From: Nitrospirae bacterium MYbin3
GTDB lineage: Bacteria; Nitrospirota; Thermodesulfovibrionia; Thermodesulfovibrionales; Dissulfurispiraceae
Assembly: GCA_002753335.1 (NCBI GenBank)
Contig: PEAD01000031.1
Coordinates: forward strand, 1-34,087
Direction of reading: 5' to 3'
DNA: 34,087 bases
Within the stretch, counting starts at the first letter, position 1, and every line of letters starts with the position of its first letter. Below the pieces are notes generated by a model. The model worked only from the letters and a program-made list of their open reading frames with translations. It ran no database searches and had not been told where the DNA came from. Both the position numbers and the translations under genes were made by a program. This document shows positions 2,970 to 34,087 of the stretch, piece after piece.

Positions 2970-3012
2970 GACTGTAGTTCACCTCTTTGGTTTCTTGATT
3001 CTTTGCGCTCGC

Positions 3013-3417: not shown

Positions 3418-3429
3418 AATTATCCCCTC

Positions 3430-4659: not shown

Positions 4660-4665
4660 AACATG

Positions 4666-5667: not shown

Positions 5668-5678
5668 CGATATTTATC

Positions 5679-7653: not shown

Positions 7654-7668
7654 AATAGCGGAGTGGCG

Positions 7669-18704: not shown

Positions 18705-19811
18705 TTAAAAGGTTATTCTAAATTCTGTGCCATGCTCTCTGTCAACTGTAATGCTGCCTTTTAGTTTTCTTGTTACCAGGTCGTGTACCAACTGCACCCC
18801 CAGAGAGCGGGTTGTCTTGAAACTGAAGCTTTCGGGCAAGCCAACTCCATTATCACTCACAACCAGAAGGCGAGAGCCGTTTTCAAGCTGGTGAAAACCG
18901 ATTTTTATCTCACCCTCTTTTTTGTCAGGGAAGGCATATTTAAGGCAGTTTGAAACTAGCTCGCAAACAATGAGAGCGCAGGGAATCATAGTGTCTATTG
19001 GGAGCTGTTCGATAGATATATCGAGTTTTAAAACAGGTCTGACGAAGCTTTGTCTGAAGGACGCTATCAGTTCGGCCGTCAACTCCTGAAAATATTCGAG
19101 CACATGCAGGTGTGACATATCGGATGACTGGTATAATTTTTCGTGGATAAGAGCCATCGTCCGTATGCTGTTCAGGCTGTCCCTGAAAACATTCTGATAG
19201 TTATCGCTGTTCAACGATTCTGTTTGAAGGCTCAAGAGGCTGGATATAATTTGAAGATTGTTCTTTACCCTGTGGTGGACCTCTTTGAGCAGTATCTCCT
19301 TGTCTTTTAACGACGCCATGATTTTGTTCTCGGTTTCTATCCGTGCCTGTACTTCAAGGGTAAGATTGTTATTAGCTTCCTGTAAATCCTTTGTTCTGTC
19401 ATCTATAACCTTTTGTAGCTGCTCATTGTATAGGACTAAGTGGTCCTCCATTTCTTTGCGCTCGTTGATCGTTTTTACGAAATGGATTATCCCCTCGACC
19501 TTACCATCGTTCTGCTCGTTTAAGATGGGATAAGCGGTTATTTCTAAATGACTGTTAAGCAGCGGCTCGAAAATTTCGCTGATAGTTGTTTTTTTCGTAT
19601 CGATACTTTTTACGAAAGGGCAGTTGCCGTGCGGTTCTTTTGTGCAATGCATCACATCATAGCATTGTCTGCCGAGAATGCCTTCGGAACTTGATTTCAA
19701 AGCATCTAGGAATGCTTTGTTGGCGCGGACAATTTTAAAATTACTGTCATGCAGCGTAACCATATCGGTCAGGATGTCGAAGCTGTCTGACCAGTATTTT
19801 TCTAAATCCAA
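18705..19811 (-). CDS. PAS-domain histidine kinase (HisKA_2 type)
   Basis: PAS with GRQCYDVMH..CP; LLKEVHHRVKNNLQIISSLL H-box; ELVSNCLKYAF, DNGVGLP, SLG motifs. Confidence 0.9.
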   Translation of the reverse strand: MDLEKYWSDSFDILTDMVTLHDSNFKIVRANKAFLDALKSSSEGILGRQCYDVMHCTKEPHGNCPFVKSIDTKKTTISEIFEPLLNSHLEITAYPILNEQNDGKVEGIIHFVKTINERKEMEDHLVLYNEQLQKVIDDRTKDLQEANNNLTLEVQARIETENKIMASLKDKEILLKEVHHRVKNNLQIISSLLSLQTESLNSDNYQNVFRDSLNSIRTMALIHEKLYQSSDMSHLHVLEYFQELTAELIASFRQSFVRPVLKLDISIEQLPIDTMIPCALIVCELVSNCLKYAFPDKKEGEIKIGFHQLENGSRLLVVSDNGVGLPESFSFKTTRSLGVQLVHDLVTRKLKGSITVDREHGTEFRITF

Positions 19812-19908: not shown

Positions 19909-20370
19909 CTACCGGGTACGTGTTTTTTTGCGTCTTGTTCCAGAGTGTTTTGTTTTGATATGTTTTTGTTTCTTGTAAAATATGAAAAATTCTTTTGGAG
20001 AAAGGACTTTGACCTGTTCGCAAAGTTCAGAGGGAAAATGATTTTGATTTCCTGTGACAAGGCATGATGTTTTACTTGAGATAGCGACTTCAAGAAATGC
20101 TTCGTCATCAGAATCGGGTAGTGGTTTTTTCAAAGGCAAAGCCGCTATTAGTTTACCCTGAAGTTTGATGTAGTCGAGAAGGTCAGCTACTTTTTTTTCT
20201 TCAAATTTAAATTTTGGCCTGCGAAGCACCTCGTCATACTCCGATAGAATGCGGGCGTCAAAATAAAGTGTCAGCTCGCCTGCCGAAACCATACGAACTA
20301 TTTCGCCACAGCCTCCAAAAGGCGAGAGCAGCCCGGCAACAAGAACATTAGTGTCCAGCACAATGTTCAT
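19909..20370 (-). CDS. PIN-domain (VapC-like) toxin
   Basis: IVLDTNVLVAGL, EYDEVLRRPKF, DSDDEAFLEVA, LVTGN..HFP. Confidence 0.88.
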   Translation of the reverse strand: MNIVLDTNVLVAGLLSPFGGCGEIVRMVSAGELTLYFDARILSEYDEVLRRPKFKFEEKKVADLLDYIKLQGKLIAALPLKKPLPDSDDEAFLEVAISSKTSCLVTGNQNHFPSELCEQVKVLSPKEFFIFYKKQKHIKTKHSGTRRKKTRTR

Positions 20371-20660
20371 CGGGTTCGTTTTTTGCGGACAGCCTTTATT
20401 TCTGCGTTTATCTCATCCATTGTAATTTTGTCGGTTCCCTGTTCGACTGACTTGAGCTGCAGGTCAGCAGCAGCTCTGATGGATCGAGACTGCCGAAATG
20501 AAGCGATTGACTCTTCAAGGCTTGCTTCGGTTGCAGACGCAAGAATGGCAATTGGCCGCCCATTGCTGGTAATTACCATCTCTTTTTCAGAAGGAAGTTC
20601 TTTCCATATTTGTGCCGACTTCCCTCTTAAATCACGAACACTCAAAAATCTCATAACCAT
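20367..20660 (-). CDS. Phd/YefM-family antitoxin
   Basis: SVRDLRGK...VITSNGRPIAIL; 4-bp overlap with the toxin start. Confidence 0.85.
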   Translation of the reverse strand: MVMRFLSVRDLRGKSAQIWKELPSEKEMVITSNGRPIAILASATEASLEESIASFRQSRSIRAAADLQLKSVEQGTDKITMDEINAEIKAVRKKRTR

Positions 20661-20670
20661 GTCCTCCGTA

Positions 20671-20710
20671 TGTGTATTAAATTATGTACACAAATGTCAC
20701 TCAATGTCAA
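20671..20710 (-). promoter_or_regulatory. TA promoter with candidate autorepression operator
   Basis: On the - strand TTGACA (20710-20705), N18, CATAAT (20686-20681). Inverted repeat TGTGTA (20671-20676) / TACACA (20687-20692) spans the -10. Confidence 0.55.
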
Positions 20711-20798
20711 ATTTGCTGTCAAAACCTCATTGACAGGCCGGTCATAAAAAACGGTATTATTACGGCAGAGAAAATCCTAAAATTCTATAGAGGGGAGA

Positions 20799-21152
20799 TT
20801 GAATATCTTGCAAAATGACGCTGCTAATAAATGTGTAACGGTTATATCCGATCAAGGTCCGTCCGTAAATATTGAATCTCCTGAGCTGACAAGAGAATGC
20901 AAGCCACCTGTCAAAGTAGTTGCCCGCTTTATTCCGAACAACGGCAAAGATGTGGATCTCTCAACTCTCAAGGTTGAGATGCTCAAATTCATCTCTATTG
21001 ACCTCACATCAAAGGTTATGCCTTATGCCACAACCGAAGGCATTTTTGCCGAAGACCTGCCTCTCCCATCCGGAAATCACAAGATACGGCTTTCTATCGG
21101 GGATACGGGCGGCGGGGTAACAAGGCTACAGTTTGAGATAAAGGTTGCATGA
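20799..21152 (+). CDS. Small hypothetical protein, beta-rich (Ig-like?)
   Basis: Purine-rich RBS (AGAGGGGAG) before a TTG start; GPxVxIxSP...DLT...LPSGxHxIRL pattern of alternating beta strands. Confidence 0.6.
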   Translation: MNILQNDAANKCVTVISDQGPSVNIESPELTRECKPPVKVVARFIPNNGKDVDLSTLKVEMLKFISIDLTSKVMPYATTEGIFAEDLPLPSGNHKIRLSIGDTGGGVTRLQFEIKVA

Positions 21153-21216: not shown

Positions 21217-22377
21217 ATGGAATTATACGATTTTATCAATACCGATTTTCGTCCGTCTTTAGCGAAAGATGGGGCGGTCAGGACCGTAGTAGAAAAACGG
21301 GAGACCCAGCAGGAGAAGATCGAAGCTATCGAAAGCGGCATTGAAGAGCTGAAAAAGGAGCGCGATGAGCTTTTGGCGCAGCTTCGCACGGCGCAGGCTG
21401 ACAAGGATGCTGCAATCAAAGAAGAAAAAGATTTAAGAGAAAACGTAATCCGTCTTAATGAAAAGACCGATAATCTTTCTGCCGCAAAAGATGAGCTGCT
21501 CAAAAGGCTTGTCTGGTACGAAAACAATGTTGAAATGATTAAAAAAGACCGCAGCGACCTTGATGCCCAACTCCAGTTACGTTTGTCGGAGTTGGATCAC
21601 AAGACAAATGAAATAAAAAGGCTGGAGGCTGAACTAGAACCGCTTCGTCACGAACTCACCGAAACTCTCCTCAAGATGAAGCATGCGAAGGACGAAGAAA
21701 AGATCGCCCAGAATAATCTGTTTGCGGTAAAATCTGATCTCGCCGAATACATCGAAAAAACTAAAAAGGCGGTCATTATTGCATGTGCTGTTGTTCTTAT
21801 TGCGATAGCTTTTTTTATATTGTATAACTTGCCCGATAAGTCTATCGAACAAAGGCCGGCAGGCAAGCCTGTTTCTAAGGCTGATAATGAAGCGAAACCT
21901 GATGAATCAGGACGCAATTTACTGGATGCCCCCATGTCAAAATCTGCGCAGCAAAAGTCTGTTGCTGGTAATGTTTCTGCCGCATGGCACGGGACTCCCT
22001 ATGCCCTTGATATCGAGGAACTAAAGATTTTTGTGGTGCTTTTAAAATCGGATGAGCTATCAAAATTGCCTGCTTTGGCAGGGCAGGGACAAAATGATTT
22101 ATATCATTTTTATCGGGTCGAAATCAGCGCAAAAAAGAGCGATGTATCTGAGGAGTTTTTAAAGTCGCCTTCTATTGATTTTATCGGTGAAAATAATAGG
22201 CGAACCCAGCAGAGCGACTCCGGTTCAGTATTAAGAATTTTGTCCCCTTCTTTATCTGAGGGGCAGAACAGGACTGTTCAATTCCAATGCCCGGTGGCTG
22301 TTAGAAAGGATTTTAATCCGGCCGGGATTATAATCGGACCACTTAACAAAAGGATACTTAAAATTCAAATAGCCTGA
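21217..22377 (+). CDS. Coiled-coil + single-TM hypothetical protein
   Basis: GAGGAGG RBS; about 160 aa of E/K-rich heptads, TM segment AVIIACAVVLIAIAFFILY, then a linker and a globular C-terminal domain. Confidence 0.8.
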   Translation: MELYDFINTDFRPSLAKDGAVRTVVEKRETQQEKIEAIESGIEELKKERDELLAQLRTAQADKDAAIKEEKDLRENVIRLNEKTDNLSAAKDELLKRLVWYENNVEMIKKDRSDLDAQLQLRLSELDHKTNEIKRLEAELEPLRHELTETLLKMKHAKDEEKIAQNNLFAVKSDLAEYIEKTKKAVIIACAVVLIAIAFFILYNLPDKSIEQRPAGKPVSKADNEAKPDESGRNLLDAPMSKSAQQKSVAGNVSAAWHGTPYALDIEELKIFVVLLKSDELSKLPALAGQGQNDLYHFYRVEISAKKSDVSEEFLKSPSIDFIGENNRRTQQSDSGSVLRILSPSLSEGQNRTVQFQCPVAVRKDFNPAGIIIGPLNKRILKIQIA

Positions 22378-22457: not shown

Positions 22458-22559
22458 TTTTTCTAAATTCATCTATGTTAAGCTATTGATTAGAATGTCA
22501 GTTTGTGGTTTAATAAAAGTCATGATTTTTCCAATACGCAGCATATATCGGGAGGCGCC

Positions 22560-23051
22560 ATGAATGAAAATGTCGCAAAAATGATGACAGGGGGCGAGGC
22601 TGTTATGGAAGATGTTCTTGATTATTCATGTGCGTCTGTGGAGTATGCCGGTCTTGTAATGTACAGCTATGTGAAAAGAGGCGGCAGGTTTGCGCTCGAT
22701 CCTTTGGAAAAAGTGGCTTTTCCTGTATGCAGCAAAGTGGGGGCTGCCTATGGATGGACGCTTAAAGGTATTCAATCAGGGGCCGGGAAGATATCAGGGC
22801 TTGGAAGAATAGCTTGGCCGGGCGGGGCTTCGAAAAGGCTGGATGCTGTTGAGAAAAGACTGGCCGAAATAGATAGCCTGAAAGAACTGCTAGCCAAGAT
22901 AGACGAAAGACTGGATTACATCGAGAGACATGGCATAGTGGCTTCAAGAGAGGGCGGCCTTGAGGTTAAAGGCAAAAAGCTGGACGAATCGAGGCTTATG
23001 GTGCTCAGGACTATTGTTGCAGAAAATATTGACCTCTTGTCAGAGAACTAA
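22560..23051 (+). CDS. man1: Magnetosome-cluster protein, Man1-like (by position), with coiled-coil C-terminus
   Basis: GGAGG RBS favours the ATG at 22560 over the ORF-track start at 22503. Lies directly upstream of mamK, as recalled for Nitrospirota clusters; the name comes from synteny only. Confidence 0.55.
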   Translation: MNENVAKMMTGGEAVMEDVLDYSCASVEYAGLVMYSYVKRGGRFALDPLEKVAFPVCSKVGAAYGWTLKGIQSGAGKISGLGRIAWPGGASKRLDAVEKRLAEIDSLKELLAKIDERLDYIERHGIVASREGGLEVKGKKLDESRLMVLRTIVAENIDLLSEN

Positions 23052-23076
23052 AAAATTCAAATAAAGGACGGTACTG

Positions 23077-24150
23077 ATGGGACATCATAAAATTATAAAC
23101 ATAGGCATAGACCTCGGAACATCAAGAAGCGTTGCGTCTGCGGATAATGGAGTGAGGACTTATCTTGCGAGCGTTGTTGGTTATCCCAAGGATGCGGTTT
23201 CTTCAAAGCTCTTCGGCAGAAGCATAATATTCGGAGAAGAGGCTTTTAAAAACAGGATCTCTCTGAACATCTTCAGGCCTTTTGAAAACGGCATGCTGAA
23301 GATATCCAAAGAGATGGATGAAAAATCTGATGAATACAAAAAAGCGATGGAGACCGCAAAGGAGCTGCTGAATCGTTTGATCGAGCTTGTTCTGGATGAA
23401 GAGCAGATGGATCGCAAAGATATTATCCTGAGAGGCGTGCTTGGAGCCCCAGCGCTTGCGAGCAGAAAGAATAAAAAATCCCTGCTTGATGTGGCGAAGG
23501 ACCTGCTTGACGATGTTATGATCGTTTCGGAGCCGTTTGCTGTTGCATACGGGCTGAAGCTGCTCACCAATACACTGATTATAGATATCGGGGCCGGCAC
23601 CGTTGACCTCTGCAGAATGTCAGGCACGATGCCTACTGATGAAGATCAGATAACCACAACGCATGCCGGAGATTATATTGATCAGGTGTTCTATGACCTC
23701 TTGAAAAAGAAATACAAAGACGCGAATTTTTCTGTAAATATGGTGCGGAAGATTAAAGAAGAAAATTCGACCATATCAAAACATGGCGACAGTATTTTTA
23801 TAGAACTGCCGGTAAAAGGCAAACCGACCAAGCATGATGTTACTGAGGAGCTTAGGGAAGCCTGCATGAGCATTGTGCCCGAAATAGTTGAAGGGGTCCG
23901 CCAGCTCATATCCTCATTCGATCCGGAGTTTCAGAGCTACCTCAAGGACAATGTTGTTCTTGCAGGAGGCGGAAGCCAGATCGTGGGCCTGAAGAAAGAG
24001 ATAGAGGACTACATGAACGCCACCCTCGGATACGGCAGGGTCACCAAGGTTGAAGAGCCTTTATATGCGGGGGCAAACGGCGCTTTGTATCTCTGCAAAG
24101 ACATGCCTGAAGAGTACTGGCATCAGGTGAAGGGCAAAGGGAAAGTTTAG
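23077..24150 (+). CDS. mamK: Actin-like magnetosome chain protein MamK
   Basis: IGIDLGTSRS, SVVGYPKD, SEPFAVAYG, IDIGAGTVDLC, AGGGSQ, EPLYAGANGAL..DMPEEYW: MamK-type motifs. Confidence 0.93.
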   Translation: MGHHKIINIGIDLGTSRSVASADNGVRTYLASVVGYPKDAVSSKLFGRSIIFGEEAFKNRISLNIFRPFENGMLKISKEMDEKSDEYKKAMETAKELLNRLIELVLDEEQMDRKDIILRGVLGAPALASRKNKKSLLDVAKDLLDDVMIVSEPFAVAYGLKLLTNTLIIDIGAGTVDLCRMSGTMPTDEDQITTTHAGDYIDQVFYDLLKKKYKDANFSVNMVRKIKEENSTISKHGDSIFIELPVKGKPTKHDVTEELREACMSIVPEIVEGVRQLISSFDPEFQSYLKDNVVLAGGGSQIVGLKKEIEDYMNATLGYGRVTKVEEPLYAGANGALYLCKDMPEEYWHQVKGKGKV

Positions 24151-24152
24151 TC

Positions 24153-24392
24153 TTGGATATTCTCAAAAAAACTTTTCTGCCGGTCTTTTCGCTGCTTTTT
24201 TTGCTTGCGGTTTTTTTGGACCAGAACAATACACCGGTGCCGATGAAGATAATATTGGGAGCTCCGGTTCATATGTCGTTAAGCATAATCATTGTTGCAA
24301 GCATGCTGGCCGGCGCAGGCTGCTCGTTTGCAGGTTTTTTTATCTATAAGTTGATGAAGGGCAAATTAAATAAAAACGGTCAACAGAACTGA
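24153..24392 (+). CDS. man2: Small 2-TM protein, LapA/MamL-like (Man2)
   Basis: TM, QN..V, TM, basic tail architecture typical of MamL/LapA-like proteins; immediately after mamK; TTG start. Confidence 0.6.
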   Translation: MDILKKTFLPVFSLLFLLAVFLDQNNTPVPMKIILGAPVHMSLSIIIVASMLAGAGCSFAGFFIYKLMKGKLNKNGQQN

Positions 24393-24424
24393 ACAGTAGA
24401 TGGTTAATAAATCAGGAGGCATTT

Positions 24425-24907
24425 ATGGGAAATGATTTCAGGTACAAAATGGAGCACATTGGAGATTGTTTTGCCGGCATGATAGAAAAAGTTTCCGGAA
24501 AAGTTTCGGAAAAGGTTTCTGGGTTTGGATGTTCATCAGGTCAAGAGTGTAATGGGGGAAAGGACTTAAGGTACAAAGTCCAGCACGGCGGCGATTATTT
24601 TGTGGGCATGATAGAAAAAGTTGCCGACTCGGCGAAATCATCCGCAAGGGGTGTTATCCTCACATATGATATAAACCAGACCGAAAAGAAGGAAGAGAAG
24701 CTCTTAAAGCAGATAGGCGAGCATGCGGCGCATATCTGCAAAGAGAACCCCTCGTTTGCGCAGGATGAAAAACTCAAAGCTCTTCTGGAAAAGTTTGATG
24801 CATTAGAAGATAAAAAGAGCTTGTTTGTTGCAGAGAGAGACAAGCTCTTGTACCCCGAAAAGAAAGCAGCTGAGCCGGTTATGGCTCATATGCTCGAAAC
24901 CGCATAA
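24425..24907 (+). CDS. mad10: Mad10-like magnetosome protein with a duplicated N-terminal segment
   Basis: AGGAGG RBS; charged helical C-terminal half (YDI...KLLKQIGE). Name from synteny and general resemblance. Confidence 0.55.
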   Translation: MGNDFRYKMEHIGDCFAGMIEKVSGKVSEKVSGFGCSSGQECNGGKDLRYKVQHGGDYFVGMIEKVADSAKSSARGVILTYDINQTEKKEEKLLKQIGEHAAHICKENPSFAQDEKLKALLEKFDALEDKKSLFVAERDKLLYPEKKAAEPVMAHMLETA

Positions 24908-24921
24908 CAGGAGGAAAAAGA

Positions 24922-25053
24922 ATGTCAAAAGTATTGATAGGCGTTTTTGTCGGGGTATTTATAAGCTCACTTCTTTATGAAATACTGTATCGCAATGATC
25001 CTGAATTGGTGGACGGACTTGTTGCTAAACTCAGGGACAAGATAGCGGATTAA
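24922..25053 (+). CDS. 43-aa single-TM small protein (man3 position), absent from the ORF track
   Basis: AGGAGG RBS at 24909-24914. Translates to MSKVLIGVFVGVFISSLLYEILYRNDPELVDGLVAKLRDKIAD*. Confidence 0.75.
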   Translation: MSKVLIGVFVGVFISSLLYEILYRNDPELVDGLVAKLRDKIAD

Positions 25054-25144
25054 CAGACATAGATTTTTTATGTCTCCTTTATTATTATTTAAAACAACCC
25101 CTAATCCAGCAAGATAGCGGATTAACAGACATAGATTTTTTATG
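25038..25144 (+). repeat. Perfect 35-bp direct repeat (2 copies, 37-bp spacer)
   Basis: CAAGATAGCGGATTAACAGACATAGATTTTTTATG at 25038-25072 and 25110-25144. Confidence 0.9.
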
Positions 25145-25186
25145 GGGGGAGTAAATCAGTTTACTCCCCCTTGGTTTCTTTATTTT
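25145..25186 (+). terminator. GC-rich hairpin followed by a T-rich tract (intrinsic terminator or attenuator) before mamP
   Basis: GGGGGAGTAAA-TCAG-TTTACTCCCCC (11-bp perfect stem) followed by TTGGTTTCTTTATTTT. Confidence 0.65.
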
Positions 25187-25209
25187 TAGATGGAGGGTTT
25201 TAGGATAGT

Positions 25210-26142
25210 ATGGTAAATGGTTTGTGGAAGCTATTTAATTATCTGGTCATAATTCTGATTCTTGGTGTGGCCGCTTATGTGATCATTTTTAAACACCCGG
25301 GCATAGGGAATGTTGAAGAAGATGTTTTGAAACAGAATGTCCGCCAGAACGCGCAATACCCTAAGTTTGTGGCTTGGCTGTTCGATAAAAAAACACCGGC
25401 TGATCAGATGCCCATGTACCCTGATACTCCTCAGTCGGGCGTAAATTATAATCCGAACCTGCAGGGGAATTTTCAGAACACCCCTATGGATAATCAGCCG
25501 AACCAGCAGAATGTCGAGCCTTTTCCTGACCCGGTTGCTCCCGGCAACGCAGGTTTATTTGCGGCTGCGCCTGCTCAGGCTCCGATGATGTCTAATCTTA
25601 TGGAAAAGGTTCTTCAGGAAGGACATTGGATAGGCCTTGAAGTTGGCCCACTAACACCTGCGCTTGCTGCTGCCAACGGCATCCCTCTGAATATCAGGGG
25701 GGTGCTGGTGGATGAGGTTACTTTGCTTGCGGCAAGCAGCGGCATCATTGCCGGAGATGTCATCTCTGCAATCAACGAAATTGAAACCCCAGATTTATAT
25801 GCGTTCAAGGCGGCTACCCGGCCAATTGCGATGTCAAAACAGGCAACCGTAACGGTCTATCGAGTCGGGTCTTATAAGAAGATTGCGGTGCGCGGATTTG
25901 AGGAGCTTGGTCTTGCACAGATGGAGGCGGCCCCAATGATAAATGCGACAGACCCAAGCCCTCACGGATATTACGGGCCGTGTTTTAGGTGTCATGCAAT
26001 TTCGAAGACGGTGAAAAATACAGGACAGCTTGCCAAGGATGGCGGAGATGTTCTGGCGGTAAAAGCCCCTCCAATAAAGTGGGGCGCAAAACCGATTCAC
26101 GGCAATAGAGGAACATGCACAAACTGCCACAAACTAATTTAA
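25210..26142 (+). CDS. mamP: Magnetosome protein MamP (TM, PDZ, two magnetochrome heme sites)
   Basis: N-terminal TM, EGHWIGLEV PDZ domain, and two magnetochrome motifs PHGYYGPCFRCH and IHGNRGTCTNCH. Confidence 0.93.
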   Translation: MVNGLWKLFNYLVIILILGVAAYVIIFKHPGIGNVEEDVLKQNVRQNAQYPKFVAWLFDKKTPADQMPMYPDTPQSGVNYNPNLQGNFQNTPMDNQPNQQNVEPFPDPVAPGNAGLFAAAPAQAPMMSNLMEKVLQEGHWIGLEVGPLTPALAAANGIPLNIRGVLVDEVTLLAASSGIIAGDVISAINEIETPDLYAFKAATRPIAMSKQATVTVYRVGSYKKIAVRGFEELGLAQMEAAPMINATDPSPHGYYGPCFRCHAISKTVKNTGQLAKDGGDVLAVKAPPIKWGAKPIHGNRGTCTNCHKLI

Positions 26143-27026
26143 ATTATTTAGAGTGCAAGACCTGCGAGAAGAAGGCCGGCTGGATTGCGGTCTTTTCTAA
26201 TCTTGGACTTGCTGTTTTCAAGCTTATAGTCGGAATACTGAGCGGCAGCAAGGCGGTAATCGGCGATGCCTTGTATTCTTTCAAGGATTTTTTTATTGCC
26301 CTCGTTGTTCTGGCCGGAATAAGAATATCAGGAAAACCGCCGGACGAGAACCATCCATACGGCCACGGCAAGATAGAGTTTGTGGCGATTTTCTTTATAA
26401 GCCTGCTGATTATTATCGGTACATTTTTCTTGTTTATTCATTCGGTAAAAGATGTCTGGATGGTTATACAGGGTATATCAACGCCTCATCCCAAGTTTAT
26501 CGCTTTTTGGGCCGCGATTATTTCTGTTGTTGCGAACTATAAACTAGCAAACTATCTGCATTGTGTTGGCGAAAGGGTCCAAAGCCCTGCCATGCTGGCT
26601 AATGCAAAACATAATCATTCCGACGCAGTTTCTTCGGCATTTGTTGCTGTAGCTGTGCTTCTGACCTCGTTCGGATGGTATATCGTGGACCCGCTCGTAG
26701 CGGTAATAGAAACGGTGGACCTTATCATGCTTTGTGTGAATATGATGAAAGACACTATGAAGAGCCTGCTTGATTCGTCATTGGACAGCTCTATAATGAA
26801 GCAGATAGAGTCAACCGCACAGCTCGTTCCGGGCGTCAGGAAGGTTTCATCCCTGACCGCGCGCAAGACAGGTCAGAGTATCTGGATAGACATGATAATA
26901 AAGATAGACCCGCGCCATACACTTGACAACGGATACAAGATAAGCCGTCAGGTTGAGGATACGCTGATGAAGCGCATAAGAGGCATAGGCGGTGTGCATA
27001 TCGCGGTGGAGCCTTATACGCCATGA
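26115..27026 (+). CDS. mamM: Magnetosome CDF transporter MamM
   Basis: N-terminal CxxC, GSKAVIGDALYSFKD (the Y..D variant typical of MamM), PPDENHPYGHGKIEF, SPAMLANAKHNHSD. Confidence 0.88.
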   Translation: MHKLPQTNLNYLECKTCEKKAGWIAVFSNLGLAVFKLIVGILSGSKAVIGDALYSFKDFFIALVVLAGIRISGKPPDENHPYGHGKIEFVAIFFISLLIIIGTFFLFIHSVKDVWMVIQGISTPHPKFIAFWAAIISVVANYKLANYLHCVGERVQSPAMLANAKHNHSDAVSSAFVAVAVLLTSFGWYIVDPLVAVIETVDLIMLCVNMMKDTMKSLLDSSLDSSIMKQIESTAQLVPGVRKVSSLTARKTGQSIWIDMIIKIDPRHTLDNGYKISRQVEDTLMKRIRGIGGVHIAVEPYTP

Positions 27027-27748
27027 CAGAAAATAACATGAAAGACTTTGGCTGGTTTGACAGTCTGTTGACCTTATCAGGTACTAGCCTTCCGGCCATA
27101 AAGAAGGAAGTTCGGGAGATGCTCAAAGAGTATGATCTGAGATACGGCAGCGAAAAGTCCAAGAGACACAGGGCCTATAAAGTCAGCAGCAGTCTTATAA
27201 GGCAGGCTGCATTCAAGACCGCAGGAATGGGCGGGCTTACCAGCGTGCCTGCCACATTGCCTGGAATCGGCACTATCGGCACTGTGCTTCTCGGCAGCGC
27301 TGTTGATCTCTATTATCTTTTGAGGGTCCAGATAGAATTATGCTATGCCATATCGGTAGTTTATGAAACAACCGTGGACGAGGATGAGCTGAAGGCGATT
27401 ACGCTTGCCTTGCTCGGTTTTTCGGGATCAACAGAAGCCTTGAAAGCGGTGGCAGCAGGAACTTTCAGGCGTGTCATAGATGAGGCTGCTGAAGGATATA
27501 TAAGAAATGGCCTTACCAAAGCAAGTTCTGAGGTGGCAGAGAGACTAATCCCTAGGCTCTTGAAAAATACATATAAGATTATTCCATTACTTGGAATTCC
27601 TTTGGGTGCAACCATTAATATAGTTTCTACATTGACGGTTGGAAGGCAGGCAAGAAATTATTTTGCTGTTTTGTCAGGCGATGAGTTGTCTGCGGATGCG
27701 CCAAAAAGTTTTAACGGAAACTATGCAGAGGCTGGCGGGCTTGAGTGA
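27023..27748 (+). CDS. mad31: EcsC-like membrane protein (Mad31 position)
   Basis: EcsC-like pattern (A..GGLTSVPATLPGIGT...DL...Q...IPLLG..LGA.IN...VG..A); lies between mamM and mamQ. Symbol from synteny. Confidence 0.55.
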   Translation: MTENNMKDFGWFDSLLTLSGTSLPAIKKEVREMLKEYDLRYGSEKSKRHRAYKVSSSLIRQAAFKTAGMGGLTSVPATLPGIGTIGTVLLGSAVDLYYLLRVQIELCYAISVVYETTVDEDELKAITLALLGFSGSTEALKAVAAGTFRRVIDEAAEGYIRNGLTKASSEVAERLIPRLLKNTYKIIPLLGIPLGATINIVSTLTVGRQARNYFAVLSGDELSADAPKSFNGNYAEAGGLE

Positions 27749-27760
27749 GAAGAATTCAAT

Positions 27761-28336
27761 ATGATAGCGAAGATCAGACGCAATATTCTTTATGTCGGGG
27801 CGGTTGTAATATTTCTCCTGTTTATGGTCTCGAAGCTTGTTTACAACAAGATGATAGACGAAGAGCATTTTATGCATATATCCCACGGCAAGCTCGAAGC
27901 CGCGCTTCACAAGAGGGAAGACCTGAACAGGAATGCGCTCAAGGCGGTAAATGTTTATGTGGAGATGGAAGGCGAGCTGATGCACCGTCTTATGACTCTT
28001 GCGAAAGAGGTGAAGTCAGGAGCGAACGCTGCGAGGATTGCGGCTATGAGAAACGATATAGAGCGTCTTATAAGCTCGATGGATGTATTGGTTATGATGT
28101 CGCCTCATCTCAAATCAAAAGGGCCTTATATACATCTGATGGAAACCTTCAAATCCACAGAGAACGAGGTGCTGGCGGCGCGTCTGCAGTACAATACTGC
28201 GGTGTGCGAATATAATATGTTTTTAGATAAGTTTCCATATAGGCTAGTAACATTGGTTTATGGTTTTAAAAAAGCTGCTCTTTTTGAGAAGTCGGAAGGG
28301 ATAGAGGTTGCGCCTGATGTCAGCAGTGGTACATAG
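27761..28336 (+). CDS. mamQ: LemA-family magnetosome protein MamQ (copy I)
   Basis: TM then YN; KREDL, PHLKS, STENEVLAARLQYNTAV.EYN...FP LemA signature. Confidence 0.85.
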   Translation: MIAKIRRNILYVGAVVIFLLFMVSKLVYNKMIDEEHFMHISHGKLEAALHKREDLNRNALKAVNVYVEMEGELMHRLMTLAKEVKSGANAARIAAMRNDIERLISSMDVLVMMSPHLKSKGPYIHLMETFKSTENEVLAARLQYNTAVCEYNMFLDKFPYRLVTLVYGFKKAALFEKSEGIEVAPDVSSGT

Positions 28337-28356
28337 GCTATGAAGAGAGAGAGATT

Positions 28357-29259
28357 ATGAAATACGCTGAATGTGAGAGATGCGGCAAGTTGTCCCCTCG
28401 CTGGAGTGTGGTGGGCAATCTCTCGATGTGCGTCTTTAAATTCGTTGTGGGTATGCTTACCGGCAGCAAGGGGCTGATTGCGGATTCACTGCATTCTGTT
28501 GCTGATGCTATTTCCTCTATCTTTGTCCTTATAGCATTAACCGTATCGGACAAGCCGAAAGACAAGCACAGGCCGTTCGGTTACGGCAAAGTCGAATATA
28601 TCAGCACCATATTTGCCAGTCTTTTTATTTTTGTCTGTGCTGTAACGGTGCTTATAGATGCGCTTGAGAGCATAAAGAGCGGTGTGAATAGGGTGCCTGA
28701 CAACGGAGCTATATTTGCTACACTGCTGTCTCTGGCATTCAGCTGGCTTATGTATTCATCCAACACCTGCGCAGGAACCCAGCTTAACAGCCCTGCCATG
28801 CTTGCTGACGCTGCCGAGAGCAAGGCCGATAGCCTTACATCAGTGGCTGTGCTTGTCGGACTTATAGGTACGAAGTTAGGTTTTGCGAGCGCTGATAATG
28901 TGTCTGCCATTGTGGTGGCAGCTTTTATATTCCATATCGGTACAGAGATGTTTTTGAGCGGAGTGCACGGCCTGATCGATGTGTCTATGGACAGCGCTTC
29001 TTTAGAGCAGGTAAGAAGGATATGTCTTGGTGTGAAAGGCGTAGAGGGGGTTAAGGGCATAAAATCCCGCCAGATGGGACAGAAAAATCATCTTAATATT
29101 GATATAGAAATCTTGCAGTCGGTAACTGTTTTTGAAGCCCATGAGATAGCGAACAGGCTTAAAACAGCCGTGAAGAACAATCTAGAAGGTGTTGATGAAA
29201 TTTTTGTACGCACAATACCTATACAAAAACTGAGCTTCTTTAAAAAAGCCAACAATTAA
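28357..29259 (+). CDS. mamB: Magnetosome CDF transporter MamB
   Basis: MKYAECERC start, GSKGLIADSLHSVAD (HxxxD), PFGYGKVEY, SPAMLADAAESKAD. Confidence 0.9.
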   Translation: MKYAECERCGKLSPRWSVVGNLSMCVFKFVVGMLTGSKGLIADSLHSVADAISSIFVLIALTVSDKPKDKHRPFGYGKVEYISTIFASLFIFVCAVTVLIDALESIKSGVNRVPDNGAIFATLLSLAFSWLMYSSNTCAGTQLNSPAMLADAAESKADSLTSVAVLVGLIGTKLGFASADNVSAIVVAAFIFHIGTEMFLSGVHGLIDVSMDSASLEQVRRICLGVKGVEGVKGIKSRQMGQKNHLNIDIEILQSVTVFEAHEIANRLKTAVKNNLEGVDEIFVRTIPIQKLSFFKKANN

Positions 29260-29273
29260 AAGGAGGATAGTAA

Positions 29274-29918
29274 ATGCCGTTTGATATGGATTTTAATGAT
29301 GTGAAGGTGCTTTTAAAGACTGTCACCACTAACAGCAAAAAAGCGCTTGATAAAATGACCGACAGATACAACAACTTTTTGACACTGAACCCTGATGATG
29401 CAAAGCAGGTGTATCTTAATTCGGGCAGAAAGTCTATGGCGGCTGGTGATTATGAAGGAGCTATCAAGACCTACAGAAAGCTTTTGGAATTTGATCCCGC
29501 TAATATCGAAGCCCTTTCTGAACTGGGCAAAGCATATATCAAGGTAGGGCTTCTCAACGATGCTGTTGAACTGCTCGAAAAAGCGAGGACCGTTGACCGC
29601 AGCTCTGCGCAGATATGCTTTTATCTTGGGTCCGCCTATTTTATGGAGGACAAGAACAACGAAGCGCTGAAGGCCTTTCAGGAGGCGATAAGGATTGATC
29701 CCGGATATGTTGAGGCCCATTACAAGTTGGGGTTGGTATATGACAGCATGCAGGACCACGATAAGGCGATAGATGCGTATAAGAAGGTTACAGCGCTTAA
29801 CCCTGATTTTATCAAGGCCTACCAGAGCCTCGGACTTGCTTATGAAGGCAAGGGCCAGAGGGATGAGGCGATAAAATATTTCAAGAAGGCGTTGGAAAAG
29901 GAAGAGAAGGGCCTTTAG
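29274..29918 (+). CDS. mamA: TPR protein MamA
   Basis: About 5 consecutive TPR repeats; located between mamB and mamI. Confidence 0.88.
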   Translation: MPFDMDFNDVKVLLKTVTTNSKKALDKMTDRYNNFLTLNPDDAKQVYLNSGRKSMAAGDYEGAIKTYRKLLEFDPANIEALSELGKAYIKVGLLNDAVELLEKARTVDRSSAQICFYLGSAYFMEDKNNEALKAFQEAIRIDPGYVEAHYKLGLVYDSMQDHDKAIDAYKKVTALNPDFIKAYQSLGLAYEGKGQRDEAIKYFKKALEKEEKGL

Positions 29919-29963
29919 ATATGAGTTATAGAGAAACAATAAAAATACAGGAGGGAATTTGAC

Positions 29964-30191
29964 ATGTCGAGTATAGTATTCGGACTGATAGCAATGTGTA
30001 TTGGTTTGTGGGGTATGGTGGCTTATTGGTGGTATGTGGTGGATGTATTTTTGGCGATTTTGCCGGTGATTTTGTTGTTTGGCGGCTTTATCGCACTGAT
30101 GGCGGGCATTAAGAAAACCGGCATCAGAACAAAGCTGACAAATGGCAGCAAGAAGACAGTCGAAGATGACACTATTACAGAAAAGCGGTAA
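29964..30191 (+). CDS. mamI: Magnetosome membrane protein MamI
   Basis: MSSIVFGLIA..IGLWG..AYWW.V..FL..LPV.L.FG..AL.AG closely matches the MamI pattern. Confidence 0.9.
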   Translation: MSSIVFGLIAMCIGLWGMVAYWWYVVDVFLAILPVILLFGGFIALMAGIKKTGIRTKLTNGSKKTVEDDTITEKR

Positions 30192-30214
30192 TTTGACCGG
30201 TTTAGGAGCTTTAT

Positions 30215-32008
30215 ATGAATGAAATGAATGGTTCAAAAAAACAGATAGGCGGGCAACAGATGCTGCCGAGTTGTCCAAAGAGCTTTAAGCCTTGGATACT
30301 GACACTGCTTCTTCTGGCGCTGCTTACCCTCGGATGGGTGGCGTTCGAAAGCTATCAGGACGGCGGCACCGTGGCCAAACTGTTTGAGCGCGATGATCCG
30401 GGCAAGATGCTTCGGGAAGGCAGAGGCACCGCATCTAACTATAATGCTGTCAATCTGCCGATGGTCAACACGATGCAGAGCAGTTACCACACCATTATCG
30501 ATGCTGTGCGCCCTGCTCTGGTAAGCATTGATGTTGCGGTAGCCGGTCCGGTGGCTATGGATCAGGGCATCCCTAATCAGGTGGCCGGCAATGTTAATGC
30601 TGTAGCAGGTGCTCCTGTAACCAACTACACGAGGGTCGGTTCTGGTGTGCTCATTTCTGACATGGGTTATGTTCTTACGAGCTATCATGTGATAGAGAAC
30701 GCGACCGCCATGAAGGCTACGGTATATGGAGCGGGCGGTGCAACCGAATATCCGCTTAAGCTTGTTAATGTTGACAGGACAACCGACCTTGCGCTTATGC
30801 GGTTGATGGGCAACGGGCCGTTTCAGCATGCTGTTTTAGGAGATTCTGATACAGTCAGGACAGGGGATGTGGTTTTAGCTATGGGAAGCCCTTTTGGGTT
30901 TGACCAGACCATAACAACCGGAATCATCAGCAGCAGGAACAGGACAGTTACTATCGGCGGCAGAGTGTTTGAAGGCATGATACAGACAGACACACCGATT
31001 AATCAGGGCAACAGCGGAGGCCCTCTGGTAAACGCACGAGGAGAGGTCATAGCCATCAATACAGCTATTTACTCTCCCACAGGCGCTTTTAGCGGCATCG
31101 GATTTGCGATTCCGGTCAATCAGGCAGCGTCGCTTGTTGGCGGTGTTGTTGATTTTGGCGGAGCGCTCCCTCAGGTGGCGGGCGGACAGTTGGCAGCATG
31201 GGCAAGAAGCGGAAGACAGACAGGAAATTCATACAAGATGCCGAATGGCAAGATAATAACCCCGCCGCATCCGTTCAGGGGTAAATGTGTAGACTGCCAC
31301 CCGCAGTTGTGTCCGACACCGGGGCAGGGCGCAGGTATGGGGCTTATGGGCAATAATACTTTTCCTGTTGCAGGACAGGGCGGTTTGACCGCAGACCCTT
31401 ATTTAGGGGCATCGCTTTTGGATGTGAATGATGTCATAGCAAAGCAGTTCAAGTTGGCACATGCAGGCGGTGTGCTGGTTGACAACGTAGCGCCCGGTTC
31501 TCCGGCAGAAATGGCAGGCATACAGAGAGGCGATGTTATCCTCAGATTTGATGGCCGCAGACTGCAGAACATTGCCGAGCTTCAGAGCATACTGTCAACT
31601 AAAAAGGTTGATACTAAGGCTGAGCTGGTTTTGATGAGCGGCGGCATGAGAAAGACGGTAAAGATAAAAGTAAAAATAAAAGTAAAGGCTGATAATGTGC
31701 CTATGATGCCCAATCCGGGACCAAAGGTCAAGCAGCCGGGTGAATTTGAGTGGTTGGGCGCAGAGATAATACCTCTGATACCGGCTATGCAGGGCTTTGT
31801 GAATTCCGGCGTCTATGTGGCTGAAGCCGGAGGAGTGTTGGGCGCAGCAGGGTTGATGCGAGGCGATGTCATAAAGTCGGTCAATAATCATGCGGTTCCG
31901 GATATGAACTCTTTCATCAAAATCGCTAAGAAGCTTAATGTGAAAGACGGATTTGTTTTTGATGTTATCCGTTCCGGAAAACCGACTTACATAATAGTGA
32001 AGGGATAG
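30215..32008 (+). CDS. mamE: Magnetosome HtrA-like protease MamE (TM, trypsin, one magnetochrome, 2 PDZ)
   Basis: Catalytic triad TSYHV / DLAL / GNSGG; PHPFRGKCVDCH magnetochrome; two PDZ domains. Confidence 0.93.
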   Translation: MNEMNGSKKQIGGQQMLPSCPKSFKPWILTLLLLALLTLGWVAFESYQDGGTVAKLFERDDPGKMLREGRGTASNYNAVNLPMVNTMQSSYHTIIDAVRPALVSIDVAVAGPVAMDQGIPNQVAGNVNAVAGAPVTNYTRVGSGVLISDMGYVLTSYHVIENATAMKATVYGAGGATEYPLKLVNVDRTTDLALMRLMGNGPFQHAVLGDSDTVRTGDVVLAMGSPFGFDQTITTGIISSRNRTVTIGGRVFEGMIQTDTPINQGNSGGPLVNARGEVIAINTAIYSPTGAFSGIGFAIPVNQAASLVGGVVDFGGALPQVAGGQLAAWARSGRQTGNSYKMPNGKIITPPHPFRGKCVDCHPQLCPTPGQGAGMGLMGNNTFPVAGQGGLTADPYLGASLLDVNDVIAKQFKLAHAGGVLVDNVAPGSPAEMAGIQRGDVILRFDGRRLQNIAELQSILSTKKVDTKAELVLMSGGMRKTVKIKVKIKVKADNVPMMPNPGPKVKQPGEFEWLGAEIIPLIPAMQGFVNSGVYVAEAGGVLGAAGLMRGDVIKSVNNHAVPDMNSFIKIAKKLNVKDGFVFDVIRSGKPTYIIVKG

Positions 32009-32023
32009 AGGAACAAAACTTAT

Positions 32024-32740
32024 ATGGCTGAAGACGGCTTAAACAAAATTATCAAAAGGGTATATGCTGAGGATCTCGAGCTGATCGAGAAGCAGAGCGA
32101 CCTTACGATACGGAAGCAGCAGCTTCTCCAGATGCTGAAGGAGAAGCTCTGGACAGACCATTCCTCAGCCATTAAGGTAGCAATAGTCTCTTTTGGCCTC
32201 GCTGTTATTTCGGCCGGTATTTATTATTACAACTTCTTTACCCTCAATTCCTATCAGGCTATGCAGGAGAGGGCCAATGTAGAGGCGCATTTGCAGAGAA
32301 GGAGCGATCTTATACCGAACCTTGTAAAGAGCGCGGGCAGCTACCTGACTTATGAAAAGAACATATTCGGCCACATAGCCGAGATACGAGGAGCTGTGGC
32401 CGGCATGAAGTCTTTGGAGCAATCGATGTCCGGCATACAGGACAGGTCGGTGCTCTCGAAGTTTCAGGCGGTTGCCGAAGCCTATCCTGCATTAAAGGCC
32501 TCCGAAGCTTATACGACGCTCATGAAAGAACTGAGCGATACAGAGACTAAGATAGCAGATAGCCGTATAAAATATAATCAAATCGCAAATTATCACAACT
32601 CGAGATTGCAGATGTTTCCGGCGGTTATCTTCAACACATTTATTTTCCGTTTTAAACCGCTGCCTGTATTTGAATCGAACAAAGCGCCGGTGCCTGATGT
32701 ACAGCAAAGGCACGAGCAGGCTGTAAATAAGGCAAATTAA
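32024..32740 (+). CDS. mamQ: LemA-family MamQ (copy II)
   Basis: YYYN after TM; LQRRSDLIPNLV, AVAEAYPALKA, ETKIA.SR..YN, FP. Confidence 0.87.
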   Translation: MAEDGLNKIIKRVYAEDLELIEKQSDLTIRKQQLLQMLKEKLWTDHSSAIKVAIVSFGLAVISAGIYYYNFFTLNSYQAMQERANVEAHLQRRSDLIPNLVKSAGSYLTYEKNIFGHIAEIRGAVAGMKSLEQSMSGIQDRSVLSKFQAVAEAYPALKASEAYTTLMKELSDTETKIADSRIKYNQIANYHNSRLQMFPAVIFNTFIFRFKPLPVFESNKAPVPDVQQRHEQAVNKAN

Positions 32741-32748
32741 AGAGCGAG

Positions 32749-33135
32749 GTGACAACTATGGACATTAATGAGAGAGATGCTGTACTGGATAGGGTAGTTA
32801 GTTCCATAGGTGAAATGGAGGACTTTTTTTCTAAGGCTTCTCCTTCCGCCGCAATACTCAAAGAGTCCAAAGAGATGGCTGAAGAGCTCCTGAAAAATTT
32901 TCAGGAAGAACTCCGCCGCAGGGAAGAGGATTCGGGCAAAATCAGGATGGAATTCACCACGTTACGCAAGGAGCTAGACGAAGCTTTGAAAGCTAAGACG
33001 ACTATTCTGGCCATGACCGAACAGTTGGAGAGCTTGAAGCTCGATTCTGCAAAGGCCTTTGAAGAGAGGGACAAGGCCAGCGCAGAGGTTAAGAGGATGC
33101 AGGACCTCTGGCAGAAATTTACCTCGGGTGAATGA
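32749..33135 (+). CDS. Coiled-coil protein (Man4 position)
   Basis: E/K-rich heptads; follows mamQ-II directly. The start may be GTG 32749 or ATG 32758. Confidence 0.7.
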   Translation: MTTMDINERDAVLDRVVSSIGEMEDFFSKASPSAAILKESKEMAEELLKNFQEELRRREEDSGKIRMEFTTLRKELDEALKAKTTILAMTEQLESLKLDSAKAFEERDKASAEVKRMQDLWQKFTSGE

Positions 33136-34087
33136 CGATGGAAAAGAAGGGATATATCCACATAAAAGATGAAAGACGGGGGCAGGGCTCTCACTTTGCG
33201 CCTCTTGCCAAGCATGATGGAATGGCTGCAGAGGAAGTGGAATATCTTCGCAGGTTAAGCGAAGAGCTTACCGAAGATATGGCTGCTATGTCCTCGGAGT
33301 TGGGCTATCTCAATAAACAGCTTGAGATCTCGGATAAAAAGGTTCAGCTGAGGGCCTTGTATGCAGAGCAGGCAGAGAATGAGGCCGGCATACTGAAGCT
33401 GCAAGGAGATTTGGCACAGCTGAAAACGGCGTGTTCCGAGTTCCATTTTGATACTGATACCTCACGCATTGAAGAGGATTTTTCACGCGCCAGTTCCGAA
33501 ATTGATCGGTTCAATGAAAAGCAGGAGAGGCTGGGCAGGGAGTTGTCAGCTCTGCAGAAAGATGCATTAGCTTTTGAACAGGGCATTGCCGAGAGCAGGG
33601 ACAAGCTAAAGGAGAATGAAGCAGTCAGGGCAGAAAAAGAGGCTGAGCTGAACAGGCTTTCTTCAAAGAATGCAGGGCTTGAACGCCTTGAAGCCTCGCT
33701 TTCGAAATATAAGACCAGCGCGAATGACAACACATACACATCCGAGATAGCTTTCTTGTCGGACAGGCTGACAAAAAATGATGGTGCGGCACAGGAGCTG
33801 GCTATGCGCCTTGACAAGGACTTCGACAGCTTGGGAGGAGAAGCAAGCGATTTAGTGCGTCTTTTAGTTTCCAAATTATCTCTTGTGCCTGAGTTGAAAG
33901 AAAAGGACCAGCGGCTCTCATCTCTCGAAAAAGAGAGCGATGATCTGCAGAGCAGAATAGGGGCTGAGTCCACCGAACTGCTCAGACTCAGAACCCTCAA
34001 CCTTGAGGACAAGGCTAAAGTTGCTAAATTAGAAAGCTCCTTGCGCACAGATGAATCGAATGAGGCTATCATCCGTTTTATCTCTGC
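33132..34087 (+). CDS. Long coiled-coil (SMC-like) protein, Man5 position, 3'-truncated by the window edge
   Basis: ATGA overlap with the previous stop; reads MTMEKKGYIHIKDERRGQGSHFAPLAKHDGMAAEEVEYLRRLSEELTEDM... and stays open and heptad-rich to the end. Missing from the ORF track because it has no stop in the window. Confidence 0.85.
   Translation, partial: MTMEKKGYIHIKDERRGQGSHFAPLAKHDGMAAEEVEYLRRLSEELTEDMAAMSSELGYLNKQLEISDKKVQLRALYAEQAENEAGILKLQGDLAQLKTACSEFHFDTDTSRIEEDFSRASSEIDRFNEKQERLGRELSALQKDALAFEQGIAESRDKLKENEAVRAEKEAELNRLSSKNAGLERLEASLSKYKTSANDNTYTSEIAFLSDRLTKNDGAAQELAMRLDKDFDSLGGEASDLVRLLVSKLSLVPELKEKDQRLSSLEKESDDLQSRIGAESTELLRLRTLNLEDKAKVAKLESSLRTDESNEAIIRFIS

Follow-up and report, generated by a model that had tools for sequence, protein, structure and literature searches.

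The window, a stretch of 34,087 nt that makes up the whole of contig C20 (GenBank PEAD01000031.1) in the draft genome of Nitrospirae bacterium MYbin3 (2.93 Mb, 66 contigs, 93.7% completeness, 0.18% contamination), carries in its right-hand part a dense array of genes that very probably belong to a magnetosome cluster. From 22.5 kb to the contig end, all sizeable open reading frames (ORFs) lie on the + strand, and are spaced by 0–50 nt or overlap shortly; the sole larger gap measures 157 nt and precedes mamP. The genes mamK, mamP, mamM, mamB, mamA, mamI and mamE, together with two LemA-type mamQ copies, are co-directional between 23.1 and 32.7 kb, in agreement with a preliminary description of the same DNA, which had named all of them as a tightly packed series. 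The core set mamA, B, E, I, K, M, P and Q is clustered in the window, and a TauE-type part of mamO was found on a second contig of the genome, C4.

Family assignments were obtained by scanning the ORFs of the window against NCBIfam and Pfam, the NCBIfam scores being read against the curated cut-off of each model. The magnetosome actin MamK (23077–24150, +) scores 464 bits with NF040964 (cut-off 400), and has MamK (5jyg) as its best natural match in the PDB with 251 bits, MreB reaching 47 bits. The mamP gene (25210–26142, +; NF040965 215 bits, cut-off 300) encodes a PDZ domain and two magnetochrome haem motifs. Two Pfam MCR stretches were detected in MamP, and its two CxxCH motifs, as had been described beforehand, are CFRCH at residue 258 and CTNCH at residue 303, both of which align with the MamP structure 4jj0, the best natural PDB match (127 bits). 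Two transporters of the CDF family are present, MamM (26115–27026, +; NF033615 425.5 bits, cut-off 350) and MamB (28357–29259, +), for which NF033616 is the top family (249 bits, cut-off 350) and which is 59–77% identical to the same-position genes of the relatives G039 and G079. The TPR coat protein MamA (29274–29918, +) has NF040959 as its top family (142 bits, cut-off 200); its best natural match in the PDB is MamA 3vtx with 200 bits, which we take to be the protein of Ca. Magnetobacterium bavaricum, and MamA of the 3as4 type scores 75 bits. The small membrane protein MamI (29964–30191, +) has NF040963 as its top family (71.8 bits, cut-off 80), and is 83% identical to its counterpart in G079.

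The mamE gene (30215–32008, +) encodes an HtrA-type protease with one CxxCH motif (CVDCH at residue 358) and two PDZ domains (Pfam Trypsin_2 101 bits, PDZ). The His, Asp and Ser motifs of the protease read TSYHV, DLALM and GNSGGP, and the protein shares 52–69% identity with its positional counterparts in G039 and G079. A search of genome contigs with MamE alone returned only five distant loci, three in Omnitrophota metagenome-assembled genomes (MAGs), one labelled Thermoproteota and one SAR324. Of the two LemA-family genes, mamQ-II (27761–28336, +; Pfam LemA 83.5 bits) lies before mamB and mamQ-I (32024–32740, +; 115 bits) after mamE. MamQ is the only NCBIfam match of either, with 45 and 81 bits for the two genes at a cut-off of 250, and mamQ-I is 54–77% identical to the same-position genes of G039 and G079. 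Because the scores are low, those Mam names that fall below the cut-offs rest on synteny and on the 52–83% identity to genes at the same positions in the clusters of relatives.

The man and mad genes were named from the published Nitrospirota order and from positional equivalents in relatives, the names man1, man2 and man3 coming from that order and not from a named sequence. The first of them, man1-like (22503–23051, +), has its likely start at the ATG at 22560, and shows 28–32% identity to the ORF that lies upstream of mamK in G027 and in G039, and 38–50% within the host's family. Downstream of mamK follow a small man2-like gene with two predicted membrane helices (24153–24392, +), with 38–63% identity at the same position in G039, G079 and G076 (41% to G039), a gene at the mad10 position and presumed to be mad10 (24425–24907, +), with 43–56% identity at the same position in five relatives (G019, G076, G077, G079 and G132) and no match in G039, and a man3-like membrane peptide of 43 residues (24922–25053, +), 42% identical to a 52-residue ORF just before mamP in G039. 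All three of man1, man2 and man3 are represented, at 28–42% identity to the same-position ORFs of G039 and G027. A terminator-like hairpin with a 12-bp stem and a T-rich tail, recognized by pattern match only, is located between man3 and mamP (25144–25171, +), and may split the cluster into two transcription units.

Between mamM and mamQ-II lies mad31 (27023–27748, +), an EcsC-like protein of 241 residues that is 55% identical to the one at the same position in G039; its relatives at 52–57% identity carry the UniRef name 'Magnetosome protein Mad31'. The series ends with two genes assigned by position, a man4-like coiled-coil gene (32749–33135, +; 44% identity in G079, 22% at the same position in G027) and a man5-like coiled-coil gene that is truncated by the contig end (33132–34087, +). 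The extent of 22560–34087 given in the preliminary description begins at the first ATG of the man1-like ORF, and position 34087 is where the contig stops; the cluster continues beyond it and is also larger towards the left.

The remainder was located by searching the proteins of the G039 cluster by tblastn against the window's own genome, which led to contig C4 (6,631 bases). This contig carries a man6-like coiled-coil gene (193–1389), mamO-Cter (1395–2315; Pfam TauE 155 bits), mad23 with HEAT repeats (2413–3921), mad24 (3938–4483), mad25 (4486–5211), mad26 (5582–6178) and, after mad26, mad2 (6206–6607). The man6, mamO-Cter, mad23–26 and mad2 genes that had been expected past the right edge are all present on C4, mad2 not being in its printed position. 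The coiled-coil genes at the man4, man5 and man6 positions are 34–44% identical to their G079 counterparts, and mad2, mad23–26, mad28 and mad31 are 29–65% identical to positional equivalents in G039. C4 is collinear with G079 over man5, man6, mamO-Cter, mad23, mad24, mad25 and mad26. Residues 22–301 of the last ORF of the window align to 37364–38251 of G079:C16, and the open frame at the beginning of C4 aligns to 38273–38446 of the same gene; since both align consecutively to one G079 gene, C20 and C4 abut inside man5.

Two further observations were made on these contigs. A small ORF with two membrane helices (C4:5171–5566) lies between mad25 and mad26, with 50% identity at the same place in G079, and is absent from the cluster gene list in the available parts of PMC8353452 and PMC9376291. 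In addition, the window's own MamK and Mad31 are each recorded on two contigs, and RarA on one; as the longest measures 108,022 bases in each case, a longer public assembly of the locus exists.

The cluster also extends to the left of the region flagged beforehand, with feoAB, mad28 and a ParA-type gene at 12.2–17.7 kb. A feoA/mad30-like gene, named by position (12216–12950, −), encodes a DtxR-type metal-binding domain fused to FeoA (Pfam Fe_dep_repr_C 80.5, FeoA 46.6 bits), and has the same gene neighbours in the metagenome loci L062–L066. It is followed by a feoB/mad17-like ferrous iron transporter gene, likewise named by position (12970–14940, −; TIGR00437 331 bits, cut-off 315.65). A second actin-like protein of the Mad28 type is encoded at 15095–16156 (+; Pfam Volactin 275 bits), with 70–78% identity in G076, G077 and G079. 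It is read as mad28 because it is 65% identical to an actin-like gene located two genes upstream of man1 in G039. A conserved small hypothetical gene (16165–16608, +; 31–50% identity at the same position in G050, G076, G077 and G079) separates it from a ParA/MinD-type ATPase gene (16789–17685, +; Pfam AAA_31, CbiA and ParA; 63–69% identity in relatives), which is mad29 by position, Mad29 presumably being a ParA-type ATPase. A mad28–mad29–hypothetical region is named in the available parts of PMC9376291, and PMC12713370 makes no mention of Mad29.

Two gene pairs and a coiled-coil gene occupy the interval between mad29 and man1. The first pair consists of a response regulator with a GAF domain (17803–18684, −; Pfam Response_reg, GAF_2), 60–61% identical to man1-adjoining genes in G039 and G132, both from another family, and of a PAS histidine kinase (18705–19811, −; Pfam HisKA_2 90 bits) that is 40% identical to the gene beside the regulator gene in G132. 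The regulator gene does not figure among the cluster genes that are named in the available parts of PMC8353452 and PMC9376291. The second is a PIN toxin/Phd antitoxin pair (19909–20660, −; Pfam PIN_3 77 bits; PhdYeFM 25 bits, below the 29.8-bit cut-off), which represents an insertion relative to genus g7, as the interval of G077 from the ParA-type gene to the coiled-coil gene has no equivalent of it. An orphan ORF of 117 residues accompanies the pair (19909–21152 in all), and g7 has nothing between the ParA-type and the coiled-coil gene. The coiled-coil gene itself, cc386 (21217–22377, +), encodes one membrane helix near residues 189–207 and a C-terminal domain. It shares 31–34% identity with its positional equivalents in G076, G077, G079, L062 and L066, occurs at this place in the window's sub-lineage only, and has no match in G039 or G027.

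With high confidence, we conclude that positions 12.2–34.1 kb of the window are most of a man/mad magnetosome cluster of the Nitrospirota type, with the rest on the second small contig, and that the uncultured Thermodesulfovibrionales-type host is predicted to be magnetotactic. A division of labour can be proposed from the named families and from what has been published on Magnetospirillum and Desulfovibrio magneticus. The magnetosome membrane would be formed by MamI, MamQ and MamB, and iron would be loaded by the MamM/MamB transporters together with the adjacent FeoAB. The magnetochromes of MamP and MamE would keep the balance of Fe(II) and Fe(III), MamE would also process partner proteins, and the TauE-like MamO-Cter may aid nucleation. 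The Mad and Man proteins would confer the elongated, bullet-type shape on the magnetite. Positioning of the chain is anticipated to involve MamK, Mad28, the ParA-type ATPase, the coiled coils (man4–6, mad24–26) and the HEAT-repeat protein Mad23, with MamA as the putative organelle coat.

A scan of 317 genomes of the order (316 besides the window's own) revealed MamK-type matches of two classes. True MamK, at 56–85% identity, occurs in 26 of the 316 other genomes, namely in 6 of 67 in the host's family f1, 18 of 22 in f4 and 2 of 54 in f2; those in f1 belong to g7 (three genomes, 85%), g23 (two, 74%) and g19 (one, 62%). About 70 further genomes have only a MamK-like actin of 44–52% identity, and lack the cluster. 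All six of these actins that were tested exceed the NCBIfam MamK cut-off (G030, G040, G029, G034, G005 and G025; loci L012–L017 and L022), so MamK alone is no marker of magnetotaxis in this order. In the four loci checked, the MamK-like actin adjoins an Amidase_3 cell-wall amidase, and in three of them a SPOR-domain protein follows, two of these with a receiver domain; the amidase-linked actin may act at the septum.

A tree was computed from 28 true MamKs and rooted on six sequences of the 44–52% class. The window MamK falls in the true, cluster-linked clade, which is split from the MamK-like actins with 100/100 support, and groups with g7 (100/98) and then with g23 (98/96). The window/g7/g23 group is nested with the f4 genera g60 and g65 (100/98), and G019 is placed elsewhere. 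In approximately unbiased (AU) tests, neither f4 (p 0.0006) nor f1 (p 5e-5) is accepted as monophyletic. The cluster thus appears to reside in a sub-lineage common to two other genera of the family, nested among those of another family that is magnetotactic almost throughout. According to the available parts of PMC9376291, the Dissulfurispiraceae obtained their cluster from the Magnetobacteriaceae, and the tree seems to fit that transfer followed by losses. Upstream of its main cluster, the closest relative, G079, bears an additional mamP-mamM-mamB set, and the mamP gene within the main cluster is split in two pieces; the loci concerned lie at about 17.9–20.7 kb and 29.5–33.3 kb of G079:C16 (L029/L030).

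Several points weigh against the assignment. Eight of the ten Mam calls are below the NCBIfam curated cut-offs. Best matches to non-magnetosome CDF, HtrA, LemA or MreB families, which the preliminary description had singled out as contrary evidence, were not found, the sole soft spot being MamE, for which the MamE model (263 bits, cut-off 800) scores below the generic Do-family peptidase model (305 bits). The man4–6 genes are named by position and coiled coil only, and their identity to family f4 is 22% (man4) or undetectable. The cluster is divided over two contigs. The last 57 bases of the window (34031–34087) are the exact reverse complement of C4:970–1026 (blastn, 57/57), and this inverted copy is probably an assembly artefact at a chimeric contig end. 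As to the host, two mismatches separate the phylum probe Ntspa712 from the 16S gene on contig C11 of the window genome. The tree is based on a single gene; the AU tests followed inspection of the tree, although the groups they used are the family labels of the collection itself. Finally, magnetosomes and magnetotaxis of the host are predicted from genes.

One alternative concerns the origin of the cluster, namely a recent acquisition by transfer from a g7-like donor instead of inheritance from a g1/g7/g23 ancestor with loss in the same-genus relative G001, and we regard it as doubtful. No MamK, MamM or MamP was found in G001, a draft of 99% completeness whose RpoB C-terminal part is 95% identical to that of the window genome; being a draft, it can show absence only as 'not found'. 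The distribution in the family is patchy (6 of 67 other genomes), a toxin-antitoxin pair is lodged in the cluster, and the synteny with G001 ends close to the left edge of the window. Positions 1–2043, with rarA and an amidohydrolase gene, are syntenic with G001 at 82% DNA identity; beyond base 2043, G001 carries sequence matching C9:35262–38924, and the window genome has signalling genes and the magnetosome cluster instead. A single island relative to G001, composed of C20:2044 onward, C4 and C9:1–35261, was considered and rejected because C9:1–35261 carries housekeeping genes (EF-G, argH, pdxA, pyruvate kinase and tilS). The break at 2043/2044 is therefore a rearrangement point and not a simple, clean insertion.

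On the other side, the identity of MamK to g7 (85%) is close to that of the RpoB C-terminal part (81–83% to g7, with 82% to G019 and 75–76% to g23), as co-divergence predicts. This similar divergence favours inheritance within g1/g7/g23 and loss in G001 over a very recent transfer. The composition is not atypical, with a GC content of 45.6% in the cluster part against 44.4% in the genome (10-kb windows, standard deviation 2.25%) and a tetranucleotide distance that equals the median for 119 windows of 20 kb from the genome. The window contains no tRNA gene, and no integrase or transposase family turned up among the window ORFs scanned with Pfam and NCBIfam. Without a tRNA gene and with ordinary composition, the region has no classical island signature.

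A decaying relic in a host that no longer makes magnetosomes is a very unlikely reading of the locus. The fragmented assembly at the cluster, the displaced mad2 and the toxin-antitoxin and two-component pairs that interrupt the left part could be taken as signs of decay. The reading frames from man1 to man4 and on C4 are, however, uninterrupted, and man5 is broken by the contig end alone. The haem motifs have been preserved, as have the TauE domain and the motifs of the MamE protease, and identity to relatives is high across all genes.

It is extremely improbable that the contig was mis-binned and stems from a member of the other, magnetotactic family in the same sample, even though magnetosome clusters often lie on short or oddly covered contigs and the MamK lineage is nested among f4 sequences. 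The syntenic left 2 kb continue in G001 from a stretch that matches contig C54 of the window genome, RarA is 90% identical to that relative's, and both the typical composition and the contamination of 0.18% speak against a foreign contig. The contig is linked to the host genome. Among the 120 matches listed for RarA in a large protein collection, 15 are labelled with an organism, and 13 of these are Nitrospirae, Nitrospiraceae, Thermodesulfovibrio(nales) or Dissulfurispira(ceae), the other two being one 'hot springs metagenome' and one 'Alphaproteobacteria'; the best among the matches listed is 'Nitrospirae bacterium' at 90% identity, and Dissulfurispira thermophila reaches 79%. A search of EF-G in the ESM Atlas gave no usable taxon signal. 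The RarA labels support a host in the phylum Nitrospirota, order Thermodesulfovibrionales, the family probably being Dissulfurispiraceae. The Nitrospirota-like host proposed in the preliminary description is in keeping with these data; its possible 'undescribed lineage' is not borne out, the genome being a public species representative from a likely family with published magnetotactic MAGs, as given in the parts of the literature available. The notion that these are ordinary MreB, CDF, HtrA, LemA and TPR paralogues, prompted by the many NCBIfam scores below cut-off and by the MamK-like actins of some 70 cluster-less genomes (six of six tested above the MamK cut-off), is already refuted by the 100/100 split of the window MamK from those actins and by the magnetochrome domains, MamI, Mad31, TauE and mad23–26 in the order published in the sources as available.

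At the left edge of the cluster, four consecutive genes on the − strand form a second module. They encode a membrane protein in which an N-terminal zinc ribbon is combined with an FGE-sulfatase-like domain (4666–5667, −; Pfam FGE-sulfatase 150.7 bits), an atypical Ser/Thr kinase with C-terminal Cys-rich zinc ribbons (5679–6881, −; Pfam Pkinase 44.5 bits), a PP2C phosphatase (6874–7653, −; Pfam PP2C_2 150.4 bits) and a TerY-like vWA protein with a DxSGS metal-site motif (7669–8364, −; Pfam VWA, alignment A1). The kinase has the motif GDLRENN and, at its C-terminus, CPWC and CSSC..CPNC, and is 65–77% identical to proteins in G048, G050, G076, G077 and G079. PADLOC yielded weak matches only for the kinase and TerY (TerY E 7e-4). 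The TerY-P triad is described in the available parts of PMC11090510, citing Anantharaman et al. 2012, as an adjacent TerY-like vWA protein, PP2C phosphatase and kinase fused to a zinc ribbon; a metal-sensing phosphorylation switch is proposed there, with related modules in phage defence. The three consecutive genes at 5679–8364 fit this definition. Unlike the triad described there, the window has an attached fourth gene, that of the zinc-ribbon FGE-like membrane protein, which contains one hydrophobic helix (residues 40–58) and is found adjacent at 49–68% identity in G050, G076, G077 and G079. This gene is associated with the cluster, and a role in magnetosomes is putative. A further difference from the described triad is that one subclade lies at the edge of magnetosome clusters, with no link to tellurite-resistance or restriction genes seen here.

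The vWA protein occurs in 8 of the 317 genomes of the order, all eight of which have true MamK. In G000, G050, G076, G077 and G079 its gene lies on the mamK contig at a distance of 5–18 kb, and in the f4 genomes G134 and G136 the two are on different contigs. The cassette flanks the cluster on its left in three genera of the host's family and on five metagenome contigs (loci L029, L032, L036 and L039, and the metagenome loci L062–L066). A metagenome scan returned 80 loci with the trio adjacent in most, so the triad is widespread, also without magnetosome genes. Only the five closest loci (vWA 88–93% identity) have feoAB, mad28 and the ParA-type gene alongside, and two of the five have further genes of the main cluster (cc386 in L062; cc386, man1 and mamK in L066). 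No cluster genes were found within the flanks of loci with vWA at 80% and 74% identity. The cassette-bearing genomes are kin, and the counts therefore overstate their independence. In a limited literature search, nothing turned up that connects von Willebrand, PP2C and kinase with magnetosomes. The cassette may either regulate the island or hitch-hike on it. A bolder proposal, which we deem unlikely, is that the island captured the TerY-P switch as a metal-sensing arm of its own, consisting of the vWA protein, PP2C, the zinc-ribbon kinase and the FGE-like membrane protein, so that Ser/Thr phosphorylation would gate magnetosome formation upon metal or envelope signals. If true, this would be a regulatory layer undescribed for any magnetotactic bacterium.

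The magnetotactic Nitrospirota, whose bullet-shaped magnetite serves as a magnetofossil marker, are uncultured. Each added cluster helps to separate core from lineage-specific genes, and the present one adds a variant gene order with mad2 moved, as well as a candidate accessory TerY-P cassette that travels with the cluster in three genera. The host species, predicted to be magnetotactic, and its sequenced same-genus relative, which yielded no cluster genes, form a pair that could be used to study the gain or loss of the organelle. Independent genomes here back the view, published in the sources as available, that clusters moved between families of the Thermodesulfovibrionales. How magnetosomes are thought to work is not changed by these data.

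A comparison with known systems shows a close correspondence to the clusters of Ca. Magnetobacteriaceae (Ca. Magnetobacterium, Magnetominusculus and Magnetomonas), for which the man1–mad26 gene order of magnetotactic Nitrospirota is printed in the available parts of PMC8353452 and PMC9376291. The gene set and order from man1 to mad26 are the same, including the duplicated mamQ given in the preliminary description, and the printed order is kept for all genes except mad2. It places mad2 between mamB and mamA; in the window, the end of mamB at 29259 and the start of mamA at 29274 are 14 nt apart, and mad2 follows mad26. This relocation is a variant of order, not a difference in content. The MamK of the window is 70–72% identical to the named MamK of Ca. 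Magnetominusculus and 65% to that of the complete-genome relative G039, whose MamM is 62% identical. By contrast with what is available on the Ca. Magnetobacteriaceae, feoAB, mad28 and the ParA-type gene adjoin the cluster instead of lying elsewhere in the chromosome. Further differences are the extra coiled-coil membrane gene at 21217–22377 before man1, the barely alignable man4–6, and the placement of the host in a different, mostly non-magnetotactic family.

The Dissulfurispiraceae MAGs are closer in layout. In the available parts of PMC9376291, their clusters are compact, with feoAB separated by a few genes from the principal region, the family is mostly non-magnetotactic, and the reconciliation places their cluster lineage within that of the other family; the window agrees on all three counts. 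It differs in the two-component and toxin-antitoxin pairs that separate mad29 from the main part. The published MAGs were compared by description only, and the nearest cluster compared directly is that of genus g7, with MamK at 85% and MamE at 69% identity, values that place the window in a different genus-level lineage.

The mamAB operon of Magnetospirillum, from which both the solved structures and the NCBIfam models derive, has the core functions of MamA, B, E, I, K, M, P and Q in common with the window, with PDB scores of 251 bits for MamK, 127 for MamP and 75 for MamA. In contrast to Magnetospirillum, genes of the mms, mamL, mamJ or mamN type were not seen among the families with matches, MamO of the window genome consists of the TauE half only, MamE has one haem motif, and man and mad genes are present. 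In a collection of 5.8 billion proteins, the nearest non-self MamK is 85% and the nearest Mad31 76% identical, so the host is not a described species. The cluster, from a public genome and a family with published clusters, adds one more example, at the level of a species, to a system already known, and is not a new kind.

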